Below, piece by piece: positions 1,389 to 17,019 of a stretch of 64,000 nt of DNA. The first letter of the stretch is position 1, and every line of letters begins with the position of its first letter. Location: contig CAZROP010000001.1 in NCBI GenBank assembly GCA_964601935.1, positions 275,661 through 339,660 on the forward strand, read 5' to 3'. A program made the position numbers and the translations under genes. This DNA is from an uncultured Candidatus Saccharibacteria bacterium (lineage in GTDB: Bacteria; Patescibacteriota; Minisyncoccia; Phycocordibacterales; UBA1006). The notes below the pieces were generated by a model. The model ran no database searches. It was not told the origin of the DNA and saw nothing but the letters and a program-made list of their open reading frames with translations.

Positions 1389-1524
1389 GTTTTCCGTCTT
1401 CCTAGCCTCCGAGCTGGGATGTGCAAAATAATGAGCTAGAGCGAATATATTTTGCCATGCAAAGCTCCAGGAGTTAGAAAGATACACAGGGGTGTTATAA
1501 GTATGCTGAATCCTGGAAGACAAA
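1389..1524. repeat. copy 1 of a ~165-bp MITE-like element (3-prime end truncated)
   Basis: Near-identical to 13356..13522 over ttccgtcttcc.agcctccgagctgggatgtgcaaaataatgagc.agagcgaatatattttgccatgcaaagctccag...gaatcctgg. The spurious ORF 1296..1523(-) lies inside it. Confidence 0.6.
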
Positions 1525-1624
1525 CAAAGAAGAACCGCTATACTTCAAGTGCCTCTCTTGATAATATTGGTGAATTGAACAGAGAACACTCGAACAACTA
1601 CTTCGGGAATGGTATACTTTACAC

Positions 1625-3125: not shown

Positions 3126-3860
3126 ATGAGCTCTCTTTCAATCACATCAATATCACAGCAGGTATGGAGTATTTACAAACGTCACTGGAAAGTGCTTTTG
3201 ATTGCATCGCTAATACCGTTCGTTGTTTCTCTACTGCAGCAATTCGTATTCGACTCATCGATCGGAGGATCTGCAGTATCACTTCTCGCAGGCATCCTCG
3301 GGTTCTTGTCCTACGTATATCAAACCTCGTATATTATCAAAGTTCATTCTGGTAGTACTCCAGATTCCAAACAGCATCTGCGAGCAATGAACGTTCGTCA
3401 ACTATGGCGTATACTGCGTACCAATATCTGGATGGGATTTATCATTCTATGGCCCGTGTTTATATTGATTGCTGTTGCCGGTGTACTAGGGTTTGTTATC
3501 ACAAGTGATTCTTTTTCAGGAACTACAGTATCATTGATTGCTATGGGCATAGCAGCTGTTGTAGGTGCGATCATTGCATTTATTCGATCGCTATCATACA
3601 TATTGATGATGTATCTCGCATTCACAACATCCGACAAAGTTCGTACACTCCCCAAGACATCCAAGAACTTTATGCATAATCACAAAATAAAGTTTCTCAA
3701 GCTGGTCTTGTTGCAGGTGGCATTAGGAATTGTCGGTATGCTGACATTTGTCCTGATGCCCGTTGTTCAGTCGCTGATATTTATTTCAATTGTGGTATTT
3801 GCAGAACGAGTGATTGCGCAGCGGCGTGCTCCTCATGCCGAAGTCGTTAATCCAGAATAA
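3126..3860 (+). CDS. hypothetical polytopic membrane protein
   Basis: Several hydrophobic helices. Followed by a terminator. Confidence 0.5.
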   Translation: MSSLSITSISQQVWSIYKRHWKVLLIASLIPFVVSLLQQFVFDSSIGGSAVSLLAGILGFLSYVYQTSYIIKVHSGSTPDSKQHLRAMNVRQLWRILRTNIWMGFIILWPVFILIAVAGVLGFVITSDSFSGTTVSLIAMGIAAVVGAIIAFIRSLSYILMMYLAFTTSDKVRTLPKTSKNFMHNHKIKFLKLVLLQVALGIVGMLTFVLMPVVQSLIFISIVVFAERVIAQRRAPHAEVVNPE

Positions 3861-9788: not shown

Positions 9789-9813
9789 GTGTGACACGGT
9801 TTACTTTTTCACA

Positions 9814-9855
9814 GGCGACTCCTCTTCTAGCCAGAGGGGGAAGACCGAAAGAGGT
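9814..9855. repeat. short repeat family B copy (gcgactcctc...ctagccagagggggaagaccgaaa)
   Basis: Shares its flanks with 15807..15856. Confidence 0.4.
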
Positions 9856-9858
9856 CAA

Positions 9859-10812: not shown

Positions 10813-11297
10813 ATGAGGGGATTATAGCATATTCAGGTTGTCGACTGGGGGTGTCTCGCTATTCCAAAGAAAAAGGCTGCATAGCGTGAGATTTGCTATG
10901 CAGCGATGACGAGAGTTTGTTGTATGAAGAAAAGAATCGCTTTCTCTAGAGAGATTGTAACATGTTCTGATTTGAATTCAATCTGGATAACAAAAAAGAG
11001 CTTATCCGGACAATACCGCACAAGCTCTCGTAGGAAATCACCCGACTGTTGCTAGGGAGGATCGCATAACGATTTCTCCTAGCTCAGACAAAATTAATAT
11101 AGACGCTATATGAGAAAAAACTTATAGAAAGTATATACCTATGAATGAGTGTGTCAATAGGTAGTCTTTGAAAACCTAACGTTGAGGCTGCAGAGAGGGG
11201 AGTAAGAGACATCACCCTGAAAAGTGACTCCCTCCTAGTCTCCCAAGAGTTAAGAGGGAGGAACGAACGGTTCGGGTCGCGTCGTAGACGCGACCAA

Positions 11298-11343
11298 CCA
11301 AACCCCACCCCTAACCCCTCCCCTTTGCTAGGGGAGGGGAACC
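11298..11343. repeat. short repeat family A copy (ccaaaccccacccctaacccctcccctttgctaggggaggggaacc)
   Basis: Near-identical to 16929..16974 and, in reverse complement, to 16825..16863. It contains a 9-bp palindrome cccctcccc/ggggagggg. Confidence 0.5.
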
Positions 11344-11461
11344 CGAACCACTAGACAAACACATAATCATGTTTCATAATGTACTTCATAAGTTGACACA
11401 GAATTATTTAGTTGTATGGTGAATTTAGTTTACACACTTTATCTCACACTATAAAAACTTA

Positions 11462-11998
11462 TTGGTGATGAAAGCACTGAACAAGGGTTTTGCGTATTTT
11501 TTTGCATTGATGGCTTGTATCTCGCTGATGCTCGTCTCTTGCAATACCCAGTCTGAACTCGTAGACAATTGGGTACCGGGCAATCTTGCTGTTATCAGTA
11601 ATTCTGCAGAAGGGCTGGTTCAGATTCTCGGCGGGAGTCAGGAGACGGTAGTAATTGCCGAGCATGGCAAGAATCGGCTCGTAGGGAAAGAAGGGTCAGT
11701 ATTCGATCAAGACTCGGTTTCTCGTCGTACTGCAATACAAGCTGCCGTTTCATTCCGTGATGCTAACGGAAACTGGCATGCTCTGGATAACTGCCTGGTA
11801 ACCCCGGGTACCAAGAAACAGGACCGCGTGACATTTGTTCCTGTCCTAATGCCGACTCAGGCAGAATATAATGGCTGGTGGCTGGTGGACGAACGAATAC
11901 TTGGCGATACTCCGAACGTCAACTCTTGGAGAGGGGCGCCAAAAGCAGTAAAGACCTCGTATAATGAGGAGGATTACACCAACGAAAAGAACGAGTAA
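11462..11998 (+). CDS. lipoprotein, paralog 1 of triplicated module
   Basis: Signal peptide with lipobox LVSC. The N-terminus MVMKALNKGF resembles the N-termini of 12480 and 13640. Confidence 0.55.
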   Translation: MVMKALNKGFAYFFALMACISLMLVSCNTQSELVDNWVPGNLAVISNSAEGLVQILGGSQETVVIAEHGKNRLVGKEGSVFDQDSVSRRTAIQAAVSFRDANGNWHALDNCLVTPGTKKQDRVTFVPVLMPTQAEYNGWWLVDERILGDTPNVNSWRGAPKAVKTSYNEEDYTNEKNE

Positions 11999-12285
11999 TG
12001 GATCGTGCGCAAATCTGGAACGGAATTAAGAAACGGTGGCTTGTATGGATTGCCTTTGCGGGGTTGCTCTTTGCCGGGTTAATCTGGGGCTGGATACTGT
12101 CATCTACTAATCCAGTTCAAGGCGACCAGTCTGTCCAAATCGTGGGCAAGCTTCCTGAGCATTTGACAGATGCGGACCTTCGCGCTGCTCGCGAGGCCCT
12201 AGGGCAACTTGATACATGGCAGCCACCTACTACGAACGAAGAAAAAGATTCGACCAATAACGCTGCTCGTTTACTGAGTAACTGA
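11998..12285 (+). CDS. small single-pass membrane protein, partner 1
   Basis: The start overlaps the upstream stop (TAATGG). A basic N-terminus is followed by one TM (WLVWIAFAGLLFAGLIWGWIL). Confidence 0.5.
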   Translation: MDRAQIWNGIKKRWLVWIAFAGLLFAGLIWGWILSSTNPVQGDQSVQIVGKLPEHLTDADLRAAREALGQLDTWQPPTTNEEKDSTNNAARLLSN

Positions 12286-12315
12286 ACGACAGATACGGTC
12301 AAACAAGCCTTGCAG

Positions 12316-12378
12316 AATTGAATAGTTACCTCTTGGGTGGCTCTCGATTCTGCAGGCTTTTTATTTTCACGAGTATGT
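12316..12378 (+). terminator. hairpin terminator after module 1
   Basis: gccttgcagaat...attctgcaggc followed by TTTTTATTTT. Confidence 0.45.
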
Positions 12379-12479
12379 TTTTGATGCTTTTGGGTGAGGG
12401 TTTTGAAACCTAATAAAGTATTGACATACCACAAAATAGCGTTAGGGTTAGGTTAAAATTCATCAAAAATATTTGTATC

Positions 12480-13013
12480 ATGAAAGCATTGAAAAGATTA
12501 AACTTCTTTGCACTGATGGTGTGCGGCTTTATGCTGTCGCTCGCCTCGTGCGCTTCTGAAAATGGTGGACTTACTCGTTCGTTGGATGTGAACGACTCAG
12601 CGGATCCCCTCGTTGCCACCCTCAGGGAAAACAAGGGGGCCGTGCGCGGTGCCGTCAAAGAAGTTGGTGAGTTCGAGCGCGTTCGCGTTGGATGTATCGG
12701 CTACAATGCCGAACCTCGGGCCTTGGACGGTATGAGTGTATTTACGGTCCTCGAGACGTTCTACGATACGCTTGCGTATGCGATGGTAGCGTTTCAGGGT
12801 AGTAATGGCGAAAAGTTTTGGTACGACGACGTTCGGGTTGGTACAGATACCAAGCCCGGCACTACTGCGGAATTTGTGATACTTGTAGACGAAGAAACGA
12901 AAGAGTCAATAGTCATCGAGAAAGGACGGGTTCCTGTAAAACTGAAGCGGCTTCGATTTTCAGAGTCAGAGGAGAAGCGTCTGTTGCCCGCCCATCAAAG
13001 AGAACAGCCATGA
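12480..13013 (+). CDS. lipoprotein, paralog 2
   Basis: N-terminus MKALKRLNFF. Lipobox LASC. Same length (177 aa) as paralogs 1 and 3. Confidence 0.55.
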   Translation: MKALKRLNFFALMVCGFMLSLASCASENGGLTRSLDVNDSADPLVATLRENKGAVRGAVKEVGEFERVRVGCIGYNAEPRALDGMSVFTVLETFYDTLAYAMVAFQGSNGEKFWYDDVRVGTDTKPGTTAEFVILVDEETKESIVIEKGRVPVKLKRLRFSESEEKRLLPAHQREQP

Positions 13014-13279
13014 GGTTCAGCGTTATCCGTATAGCGTCTTCGTGGGATAAGCAACGGAAGAAAATTATCTGGATGATGGTCGCTATCTTTCTATTCCTGG
13101 TACTGGTCGGCTATGGCGTATGGTTTGCATGCCAGCCAGCAAAGTGTCCAGCTATTGGAGAAAGGAAAGTCTCTATTGAGCAGGTCATATTGATTCCTCT
13201 TGATTCCAATATGACGCCTGAACAAATCCAGGAATTTCTCAATGCGTCAGGAGAGGTTCGCACATTACCGCAGGATTAA
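13010..13279 (+). CDS. small single-pass membrane protein, partner 2
   Basis: ATGA start/stop overlap. A basic N-terminus, then the TM IIWMMVAIFLFLVLVGYGVWF. The listed ORF 12818..13279 is the same frame extended upstream. Confidence 0.45.
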   Translation: MRFSVIRIASSWDKQRKKIIWMMVAIFLFLVLVGYGVWFACQPAKCPAIGERKVSIEQVILIPLDSNMTPEQIQEFLNASGEVRTLPQD

Positions 13280-13355
13280 GAACGAACGACACAATCAAAG
13301 ACTTGCACTATAGATAGCATCACTGGATGTTCTATAGCGCAGGTCTTTTTCATAT

Positions 13356-13522
13356 TCTGTCTTCCTGGCCTCCAAGCTGGGATGTGCAAAATAATGAGCG
13401 ATAGCGAATATATTTTGCCATGCAAAGCTCCAGAATTAGAAAAACCAACTGGAGTTCTATAAGTGTTTTGAATCCTGGGTCCCAGATCTTCGCCATGGCT
13501 GCGTCTGGGAAGACGGAAGAGG
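13356..13522. repeat. copy 2 (most complete) of MITE-like element with terminal inverted repeats
   Basis: The 5-prime end ttctgtcttcctggcctccaagctggga and the 3-prime end tgggaagacggaagagg are inverted complements of each other (consensus cctcttccgtcttccc ... gggaagacggaagagg). The 5-prime end includes the hairpin tcccagc-ctccga-gctggga. Confidence 0.6.
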
Positions 13523-13639
13523 AGGTGCGAGTGTGCTTGTCTTGCCAAATGTACAGAACAATTCTGTAGCGTGAAAAAACGATTGACATATTATGGTATA
13601 GATATATCGTGAAGGTAATCATTCACATAAAATTCACTG

Positions 13640-14173
13640 ATGATGAAAGCATTAAACAGTTTCAGATTTGCGGTGATGGTTTGCGCTTTATTTATAGCGC
13701 TTACCTCCTGCGTGGGAATAAAAAATGAAATTCAGAGCGACCTGGGGTCAGGTAGCTATCTTTTCGAGGCATTGGAAAATAGCCCTCAATCCGGAGTGGT
13801 ATGGGAGGTTCAAGGCGATACCATTTTGTATATCCAGTACGGAAAAACTATACCCAGGTATAGCGCCCAAAGCCAATTTAAACCTGAAGGAGTAGAAACA
13901 CTGCACTGCGCCCTAGCGAAAGTTTGCTTTCAATTGGGGTCCCAAGAACCAGAATGTATCAGCAATTGCGCTGTTTCTGTGGCTTCGACAAAAGGAGACT
14001 CAATCCCGATGGCTGCTGTTTTTGTTCCACCTTATTCCGGCCAGTCTGGCTTTTGGGTGTTAATGCACGAAGGCACTGTCCGGGGTTTGCCGGTCGGGAC
14101 TATTACGCGGCCGGCAGGCTGGGCGGCAGGAGGACGGCTCAGTCAGGTGGATCCAAAAAACCAACGACCATGA
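13640..14173 (+). CDS. lipoprotein, paralog 3
   Basis: N-terminus MMKALNSFRF. Lipobox LTSC. 177 aa. Confidence 0.55.
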   Translation: MMKALNSFRFAVMVCALFIALTSCVGIKNEIQSDLGSGSYLFEALENSPQSGVVWEVQGDTILYIQYGKTIPRYSAQSQFKPEGVETLHCALAKVCFQLGSQEPECISNCAVSVASTKGDSIPMAAVFVPPYSGQSGFWVLMHEGTVRGLPVGTITRPAGWAAGGRLSQVDPKNQRP

Positions 14174-14481
14174 AGGTGCGAACTGCTAGTCTGCGAAAAT
14201 TGTGGCAGAGACACAAAGCCCGTATACTCTGTATCAGTATTTTGTTTCTGGTGGCAGGAGGGCTTGCTCCATGGGCTATGCGATTATCAGATCTGCCGGA
14301 TGCCTCCTCATTCCAACATCTCTCGCCTGCACAGCGGAGGGCGCTGGATAGAGCCGCAAAAAATGCAAAAGAGCTGAGCTGGCCGATGCCCAAGCAATGG
14401 GGGCGGGATACTGCGGGTCTGTACTGCAATCAGGGTCCTGTTGCTGCCGAAGAACCTCGATTTCAGAGGTTCGGGGAATGA
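14170..14481 (+). CDS. small single-pass membrane protein, partner 3
   Basis: ATGA overlap with the upstream stop. A basic N-terminus, then the TM ILCISILFLVAGGLAPWAM. Confidence 0.45.
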   Translation: MKVRTASLRKLWQRHKARILCISILFLVAGGLAPWAMRLSDLPDASSFQHLSPAQRRALDRAAKNAKELSWPMPKQWGRDTAGLYCNQGPVAAEEPRFQRFGE

Positions 14482-15806: not shown

Positions 15807-15856
15807 TAGCGACTCCTCCTGTGTCCCCCCTCTAGCTAGAAGGGGAAGACCAAATG
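15807..15856. repeat. short repeat family B copy
   Basis: tagcgactcctcctgtgtcccccctctagctagaaggggaagaccaaa, matching 9814..9855. Confidence 0.4.
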
Positions 15857-15929
15857 TATTGACATTACAATATAGTATTGTAATATATAGGATAGTTAAC
15901 TGATTCAAAAATCTTTAAAATAATACATC

Positions 15930-16824: not shown

Positions 16825-16974
16825 TCCTCCCCCTAGCAAAGGGGGAGGTTGGGAGGGGGTTTGTTTCTTGCAAGAGTTAAAAAGGTTGGGATTGAATCCC
16901 TTCTACCCCGAGACAGGAATCCCGAAAGCCAAACCCCACACCCTGTCCCTCCCCTTTGCTAGGGGATGGTAACC
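16825..16974. repeat. composite ~150-bp element bounded by inverted copies of repeat family A
   Basis: 16825..16863 is the reverse complement of 16929..16974. Both match 11298..11343. The internal hairpin is gggattgaatccc. Confidence 0.5.
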
Positions 16975-17019
16975 AAAACATCTTCGCACCAGCTACCTTT
17001 TCATGTATACTATATTCAT

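Follow-up and report, generated by a model that had tools for sequence, protein, structure and literature searches.

The DNA analysed here is a stretch of 64,000 nucleotides, called the window below, from contig CAZROP010000001.1 of an uncultured Candidatus Saccharibacteria bacterium, and the subject of this report is a short palindromic repeat that occurs in it three times, each time on the + strand. The window contains the housekeeping genes adk, map, a gene for a PBP1-type penicillin-binding protein, ruvC, ruvB, tyrS, dnaE, polA and ileS, together with a SET-domain gene, rnhB, the gene of a T2SSE ATPase and a cluster resembling a type IV secretion system. The repeat element, 127-174 nt in size, is built from two inverted end modules of ~45 nt around a variable and poorly conserved core, and in some copies a 46-nt hairpin, named module B, is nested within it. 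The copies, and the antisense open reading frames (ORFs) that cross two of them, were as follows.

1389..1526, + strand: copy 1, with an M50-like peptidase gene (764-1372) on one side and adk (1625-2215) on the other; it carries the left end module along with module B, right end reduced to GGAAGACA, 3' hairpin gone
13350..13523, + strand: copy 2, the most complete, with left end module, module B, core and right end module
25150..25276, + strand: copy 3, a short form without module B that folds into a near-perfect rod of 127 nt
1296-1523, 13276-13548 and 13350-13622, - strand: antisense ORFs across copies 1 and 2, judged spurious

Copy 1 begins 17 nt past the stop codon of the M50-like peptidase gene and ~100 nt ahead of adk. 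Copy 2 is located between two paralogous gene units arranged in tandem, where a terminator-like hairpin and a T-run immediately precede it, and copy 3 is joined to the 3' end of rnhB. The region around copy 2 (11462-14481) holds three such paralogous units, each made of two genes (~177 aa and ~90-100 aa) for which no Pfam match was obtained; the units share their start regions at 11454, 12466 and 13629, and copy 2 is located between units 2 and 3.

The three copies belong to one family. A 25-nt 5' motif, GTCTTCCYRGCCTCCRAGCTGGGAT, was found on the + strand at 1396, 13359 and 25159, with 0.00 occurrences expected from shuffles of the window, and a 3' motif, TAAGTGTTYTGAATCCTGG, was found at 1498, 13460 and 25215, at offsets agreeing with the 5' motif. 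A profile made from the three copies (nhmmer) recovered them with E values of 8e-63, 8e-49 and 3e-39. Pairwise identity was 94% over 79 nt for copies 1 and 2, 81% over 86 nt for copies 2 and 3, and 97% over 30 nt for copies 1 and 3; the three-copy family with 80-95% identity proposed in the first-pass annotation, which was made from the sequence alone, is thus real, with identities of 81-97% by pair. The size differences are due to two clean indels. Copies 1 and 2 contain a block of 46 nt (module B) that copy 3 does not have, and copy 1 is without the 3' hairpin of ~29 nt. Deletion between short direct repeats, which had been suggested for the less complete copies, describes the 3' loss of copy 1, as this loss falls between two CTGG(G) repeats, but it does not describe module B. 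The regular spacing of the copies (~11.9 kb) was considered a coincidence, and no segmental homology was found beneath it. That the family arose from chance similarity or an assembly artefact instead of being a genuine repeat has next to no probability: the motif count was 3 against 0.00 expected, assemblies from two sequencing runs were 100% identical over the right half of copy 1 and its flanks, and related copies were found in three other genomes.

[quoted passage not shown] The antisense ORFs at copies 1 and 2, which had been called spurious from the beginning, do exist and have no real homologue; a search with the ORF at 13276..13548, which covered 1.84 billion representative proteins, brought up nothing but a low-complexity protein that is unrelated, and a concatenated six-frame peptide of the element had no match in the protein database. 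Protein-coding, integron attC and CRISPR readings were ruled out by the absence of homologues, spacing and sequence, and an intrinsic terminator was ruled out since no T-run lies 3' of any copy.

The three window copies were compared with four elements of the "Candidatus Nomurabacteria" metagenome-assembled genome (MAG) JANPGR01 (L001:127-284, L001:2379-2548, L002:6880-7060 and L003:360-550 on the - strand) and with elements of two more distant relatives (L012:11241-11500 and L013:3298-3381), a small sample of nine elements from four genomes. The portion conserved across these genomes is the ends and not the whole element. In alignment A3, each end module consists of a 5' flank (C)GTC(T/A)T(CC), a 7-bp hairpin and a 3' flank (A)TCCAGGAGTT, and the left end recurs in inverted form as the right end. 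A covariance model of the end module (R1) was searched over 130.7 kb of DNA that included the window. In copies 2 and 3 it matched the left ends on one strand and the right ends on the opposite strand, it found no further strong copy in the window beyond the three, and it detected two ends outside its training set, at L001:2465-2548 (E 1e-4) and L001:121-205 (E 5e-3). The end modules in the window are listed below.

1389..1432, + strand: left end module of copy 1; R1 43.3 bits, E 3e-8
13352..13395, + strand: left end module of copy 2; hairpin CCTGGC/GCTGGG, kept through two G-U wobbles on the + strand
13467..13521, - strand: right end module of copy 2; R1 44 bits, E 2e-8
25152..25195, + strand: left end module of copy 3; best R1 match, 54.4 bits, E 5e-11
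25222..25276, - strand: right end module of copy 3, inverted, with an enlarged hairpin loop; R1 36.4 bits, E 2e-6

The order within the left end module of copy 3 is CGTCTTCC, the hairpin CCCAGC-CTCCGA-GCTGGG, and ATCCAGGAGTT. The 5' hairpin tcccagc-ctccga-gctggga of the first-pass annotation is present verbatim in this copy, and copies 1 and 2 keep its pairing by means of G-U wobbles. The terminal inverted repeat has the core CGTCTTCC/GGAAGACG and extends to 14-19 nt. Terminal inverted repeats had also been described before, and they are real, but the quoted pair was a composite: its right arm gggaagacggaagagg is that of copy 2, and its left arm cctcttccgtcttccc occurs in no copy. The actual left arms are cctctttccgtcttccc in copy 3, which is the closest and from which the quoted arm differs in having one T fewer, and catattctgtcttcct in copy 2.

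The hairpin stems vary by end and by genome while their pairing is kept, with CCCAGC/GCTGGG, TGCGGC/GCCGCA, TGCGGA/TCCGCA, CCCAGG/CCTGGG, CCCAGA/TCTGGG and TTCCCGC/GCGGGAA all observed. Over 13 ends, pairing was retained in 94.5% of 91 cells, and compensatory changes were seen at five of the seven hairpin pairs (16 cells). None of 500 shuffles was as good, and registers slid by 1-3 columns gave only 21-48% paired cells. By this comparison of sequences, the end-module hairpin is under structural constraint. The elements of L002 and L012 each carry one end of the CGTCTT type and one of the CGTCAT type; because the ends mix as different variants in this way, they behave as independent units and do not form the two sides of a single conserved helix.

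Module B is a 46-nt hairpin, GCAAAATA...TATTTTGC followed by CATGCAAAGC, located in the window at two places.

1420..1465, + strand: module B of copy 1
13383..13428, + strand: module B of copy 2, between the left-end hairpin and the TCCAG motif

Outside the window it was found twice in L012, and as variants in the first L001 element (L001a), L002 and L003; it lies inverted within the loop of the right-end hairpin of L001:2465-2548, and it is cleanly missing from copy 3 and from L013. Module B thus behaves as a separate nested hairpin module which can stand in either orientation. Its RNAalifold result (-1.3 kcal/mol) was weak and came from misaligned input, and no formal covariation is claimed for it.

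Some of the 'aatgacaa' motifs, which had at first been read as promoter -35 boxes only, were recognized as right ends of variant elements (CGTCAT/ATGACG type). Three units on the + strand, at 9810-9856, 15808-15856 and 11222-11265, share the pattern GCGACTCCTCYT...CTAGCYAGA.GGGGAAGACCRAA, have a small hairpin of their own and end like the right terminus of the element (GGGAAGAC). They may be solo or variant ends; the R1 match was weak (11.9 bits, E 2.7, at 15814-15857).

The distribution of the element was examined both between and within genomes. In an exact-pattern scan of the GTDB species set, the 5' module was found in only one other genome, the MAG JANPGR01, where 26-29 nt of it are identical in three contigs. 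The four elements of this MAG adjoin uvrD, ndk, topA and rny, and its contigs have no tblastx (protein-level) similarity to the window. The relatives L012 and L013 are close to each other, with 86-95% nucleotide identity across genes. In L013 the sister element (3298-3381) lies between rnhB and the SET-domain gene, and in L012 it lies past the SET-domain gene in inverted orientation (11513-11429) and is 89% identical to that of L013. A simple inversion cannot explain this difference, since the orientation of the SET-domain gene is the same in both. The SET-domain gene and rnhB are neighbours in all three genomes (window 24103-25209, L012 10001-11262, L013 2660-4068), in the order SET-rnhB in the window and rnhB-SET in L012 and L013.

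Within the window, an unfilled counterpart was found for the site of copy 2.

12285..12480, + strand: paralogous 'empty' spacer, aligning with both flanks of the copy-2 spacer, element missing

For the site of copy 3, the RnhB orthologues without the element-derived tail represent the unfilled counterpart. The element has therefore dispersed to non-orthologous sites, both within a genome and between genomes, and has been gained or lost at specific sites. Sole occurrence at loci with conserved synteny, which the first-pass annotation had named as the sign of a conserved regulatory RNA, was not what was found, and this favours a mobile element. A perfect 17-nt direct repeat, TTTCTCTTGTATTTTTT, stands on either side of L001:127-284. 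Two further sequencing runs yielded Logan assemblies that match the window at 100% identity, and their contigs begin at window position 1443, inside module B of copy 1; assembly breaks at this place are the behaviour expected of a multi-copy repeat.

The gene joined to copy 3 is the following.

24559..25209, + strand: rnhB, RNase HII (PF01351), encoded by copy 3 from P198 to the stop

Copy 3 starts at 25150, which is a codon boundary of rnhB, and the first 60 nt of the copy make up the final 19 codons of the gene together with its stop codon, so that the ORF terminates in ...FCRRCMG-PLSVFPASELGSRSWKNKD. All 12 aligned RnhB homologues end 1-7 residues past the conserved FCRR/K, the orthologues 3-7 residues past it. 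RnhB homologues come from Parcubacteria-type bins (e.g., Yonathbacteria, Taylorbacteria, Paceibacterota), and the six nearest relatives, with 59-63% identity, are 198-200 aa long. Since every homologue stops soon after FCRR/K, the tail and stop of the window RnhB come from the element. The orthologue alignment thus confirms the replacement of the C-terminus (~19 codons plus stop) which had been suspected earlier. Precise removal of copy 3 would join the flanks as ...TGTATGGGT and TTGTCACCATGA, and without 25150-25276 the frame would read CMG-LSP-stop, a tail of orthologue-like length. It may be proposed that copy 3 landed 7 codons past the conserved FCRR, whereby the native tail and stop were replaced by 19 codons of the element; the replacement was probably neutral.

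Taken together, the inverted repeats, the dispersal, the turnover between L012 and L013, the empty spacer and the rnhB replacement make the non-autonomous MITE-like element of the first-pass annotation the best-supported reading. In the form that we rank first and consider probable, the element is a non-autonomous, non-coding palindromic DNA repeat of the MITE/REPIN-like kind. Its architecture is nearer the REPIN/BIME type than a classical cut-and-paste MITE, because each end is a REP-like module that carries a hairpin with a covarying stem. A transposase encoded outside the window would mobilise the element in trans by recognising the ends through their flank and hairpin. Given that the hairpins covary, that their flank is conserved and that target duplications are generally lacking, a mechanism acting on single-stranded DNA (HUH/RAYT-like or IS200/IS605-like) would be favoured over DDE cut-and-paste (PMC3337134, PMC3116915, PMC6006769). 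An element inserted downstream of a gene would be passively co-transcribed as a long stem-loop in the 3' untranslated region (3'-UTR), which may incidentally affect the stability or processing of the mRNA. Such effects on mRNA have been reported for REP, ERIC and Correia elements (PMC10969869).

Several observations weigh against a selfish DNA repeat. The Pfam scan of ~47 window ORFs and 10 MAG ORFs, which included the cognate transposase search suggested earlier, yielded no transposase, RAYT, integrase or Y1/HUH protein. There are only three elements per 64 kb in the window. The two Logan assemblies, being identical to the window, gave no presence/absence polymorphism at the strain level and no excision junction. 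No carrier was found by exact-pattern scan among metagenome contigs, and the same kind of scan gave 0 matches among viral contigs. The inverted repeats asked for in the first-pass annotation are present, but the flanking target-site duplication is missing in 8 of the 9 elements, their exact termini being uncertain by a few nt. Each of the three window copies has the sense orientation, being located 3' of a + strand gene and ahead of the next promoter, and when the elements of the different genomes are considered, the strand in the sense of the mRNA has the more stable fold in 7 of 8, a count that includes the two L001 copies which are inverted relative to their genes. The last two points are what would be expected if the copies were cis-acting structured RNA elements or small RNA (sRNA) genes, spreading or persisting through a function in the transcript such as an exonuclease-blocking 3'-UTR stem-loop, an RNase III processing site or a discrete sRNA, because a function at the RNA level would predict stability of the sense strand. 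The folding energies agree with this. Copy 3 gave an almost perfect rod with -56.1 kcal/mol (z -6.8) on the + strand and -43.9 (z -4.1) on the - strand, copy 1 gave -43.5 (z -3.9) and -36.3 (z -2.6), and copy 2 gave -52.9 (z -1.6) and -46.0 (z -1.3), respectively, so that the + strand of the window copies folds better by 7-12 kcal/mol and with better z-scores. The stems of the window copies depart from the consensus six times, each time as G-U on the + strand (A-C on the - strand), and the hairpin stems covary. However, the strand asymmetry is confounded, as the + strand is G-rich throughout the window, and a C-to-T bias on the non-template or lagging-template strand would leave the same pattern of G-U on the + strand and A-C on the complement. 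The fold of copy 2 barely beats shuffles. The two ends are inverted copies of one module, a symmetry at the DNA level without obvious rationale for an RNA, and since left and right ends mix as independent variants, the end-to-end pairing itself is not conserved; nor is the core. Furthermore, the L001 elements are antisense to their flanking genes, copy 3 overwrites a coding end, and neither a promoter nor a terminator belongs to the elements themselves. No Rfam family reached the gathering score anywhere in the window, and at E <= 10 the only match on copy 2 was noise. The structured sRNA family offered as the alternative in the first-pass annotation is thus weakened, and we regard the RNA reading as unlikely, though it keeps second place.

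A classical DDE-transposase MITE, i.e., an internally deleted derivative of an insertion sequence (IS) with the same terminal inverted repeats, which moves by cut-and-paste and leaves a target-site duplication of fixed length, is a sub-variant of the selfish palindromic repeat and appears less likely again than an RNA function. Terminal inverted repeats of 14-19 nt, small size, lack of coding capacity and dispersal would all fit it, as would the direct repeat flanking one copy, and the size variants produced by internal indels recall the long and short forms of Correia elements (PMC10969869). But that flanking duplication is found in one element of the nine, and its 17 nt are longer than in most DDE families; covarying hairpins inside the ends are foreign to DDE inverted repeats; and R1 detected no IS bearing these ends in the ~130 kb of DNA searched. 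The selfish palindromic DNA repeat is therefore ranked ahead of both an RNA function and the DDE variant.

The palindromic repeat was also compared with known families. REPINs are defined as two inverted REPs separated by a variable spacer and forming a hairpin in single-stranded DNA (ssDNA) or RNA (PMC3337134, PMC3116915). Like REP, REPIN and BIME sequences, the element here has units in which a short palindrome stands between a 5' and a 3' flank. Two such units, inverted relative to each other, lie around a poorly conserved spacer, and the whole takes a hairpin fold in ssDNA or RNA; a target duplication is generally lacking, mosaics with other small motifs occur, and the position is extragenic, past genes and terminators (PMC3337134, PMC3116915). 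It differs in showing no sequence similarity and in having longer units (~45 nt). Only 3 elements are seen in 64 kb, against tens to hundreds per genome in REP/REPIN hosts. REP doublets of Pseudomonas and Enterobacteria are mobilised by RAYT tyrosine transposases (Y1/HUH, PF01797); no RAYT gene was found among the ORFs scanned in the window and the MAG loci, and the host here belongs to the candidate phyla radiation (CPR). Enterobacterial REPs have a conserved GTAG-type tetranucleotide 5' of the palindrome; in the element the flank is CGTCWT and the GTAG-type flank is not present.

Correia elements (CREE/NEMIS) of Neisseria and ERIC/IRU elements of Enterobacteria resemble the element in being intergenic imperfect palindromes of 100-200 bp with terminal inverted repeats, in occurring as a long and a short form, one of which is without an internal block, and in being transcribed together with the genes beside them. 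Promoter hexamers can be provided by their ends (PMC10969869), to which the right end of copy 1 may be compared: at 1517-1544 it supplies a -35-like AAGACA 16 nt from a TATACT (AAGACA-16-TATACT), ~80 nt upstream of adk, a possible element-derived promoter by consensus match. An IHF site and duplication of a TA target are characteristic of Correia elements (PMC10969869); no TA duplication was found at the elements here. The covarying subterminal hairpins are not a feature of the Correia or ERIC families, and sequence similarity to them is lacking.

Gene fusions generated by MITEs have been documented for the Rickettsia palindromic elements (RPEs; PMC10969869). These are palindromic repeats of ~150 bp in a reduced genome which join protein-coding genes (PMC10969869), as copy 3 does in giving RnhB 19 codons. 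The analogy holds only loosely, because RPEs insert in frame within ORFs and are read through, while copy 3 replaces the extreme C-terminus and supplies the stop, and because the fusion concerns one of the three window copies, the other two being intergenic. With PATEs and other HUH hairpin elements derived from IS200/IS605, the element shares subterminal hairpins next to a conserved short motif, the lack of target duplication and a strand or replication bias, all three window copies being on the G-rich strand (PMC6006769). The ends of IS200/IS605 elements, in contrast, are not inverted repeats of each other, and those elements insert beside a fixed tetra- or pentanucleotide, whereas no conserved left-flank motif was seen here. 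Since no similarity was found in Rfam or in the phage and plasmid collections (searched with BLAST), and since no GTAG flank is present and no fixed target duplication was seen, membership in any named family cannot be claimed; in its working the element resembles a REPIN/BIME or a MITE of the Correia/ERIC type. Within the databases that were searched, the family is confined to a narrow Nomurabacteria-like (CPR/Patescibacteria) lineage. The metagenome pattern TCTTCCNNGCCTCCNAGCTGGGA gave eight matches, all of them due to chance and inside high-GC coding DNA.

Further repeats were also noticed. A second family has the hairpin CCCCTCCCC-TTTGCTA-GGGGAGGGG with shared flanks CCAAACCCCAC... and is located at 11298-11348, 16830-16859 (inverted) and 16929-16979; the end of Logan contig L017 falls exactly within the 11298 copy, and this family thus breaks assemblies as well. 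A sister element in L012 (20343-20524) has a perfect 17-nt inverted repeat, TGTCATCCTGGGGCGCA, with an inner palindrome GCGAACCCGGGATC, and is flanked by two direct copies (~52 nt) of a GTCAT-plus-hairpin unit (20273-20325 and 20545-20597). Exact pieces of 17-21 nt of this TGTCATCCTGGGGCGCA-type sister element were found beside main elements in JANPGR01 (L003 564-632, L002 6706-6723). A 30-nt exact repeat ending in ...GAAGAACCCTCCTCCCCC is present at 53981-54010 of the window and at L015 10517-10546 (~1.9 kb past the right end of the window). Both Logan contigs stop at the GAAGAACCCTCCTCCCCC repeat, which is another CT-rich repeat that breaks assemblies.

Other features of the window were recorded as well. 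The ORF at 58037-61585 encodes a class I aminoacyl-tRNA synthetase of 1182 aa (tRNA-synt_1 and Anticodon_1) with a histidine-phosphatase domain (His_Phos_1, residues 534-685) inserted in the catalytic domain, and the same architecture was found in the Logan copies. The type IV secretion-like cluster (50671-56106) encodes a PrgI-family protein, a P-loop ATPase of the TraG/VirB4-like type and an NlpC/P60 hydrolase, and the gene of a PG_binding_1 protein comes after it. The dnaE gene is a single ORF of 1090 aa in the window and two gene calls in L012, with the PHP domain separate.

CPR/Patescibacteria genomes are tiny and usually regarded as repeat-poor, and in the literature searched no paper was found on MITEs in Patescibacteria or on intergenic repeat elements in CPR. 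The repeat family is previously uncatalogued and its sequence is new; the kind of element is well known, mildly surprising in CPR, and involves no new principle. A hairpin-ended palindromic family together with at least two further repeat families shows that the intergenic DNA of CPR bacteria is actively remodelled. For practical work, such elements break short-read assemblies at predictable places and affect the annotation of MAGs through spurious ORFs and altered gene ends, e.g., the foreign tail of 19 residues on RnhB. If the mobilising enzyme is found, the covarying hairpin and the CGTCWT flank would represent a compact recognition site. A more speculative possibility, which we hold only tentatively, is that the end modules are true REP-like units kept over the long term by a single-copy domesticated HUH (RAYT-like) or undescribed enzyme, or for sense-strand stem-loops that act in the transcript (e.g., 3'-UTR protection or processing). 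If this were true, the ultra-small genomes of CPR bacteria would have in this family their first described REPIN-type host-element system or, alternatively, a new class of cis-RNA.

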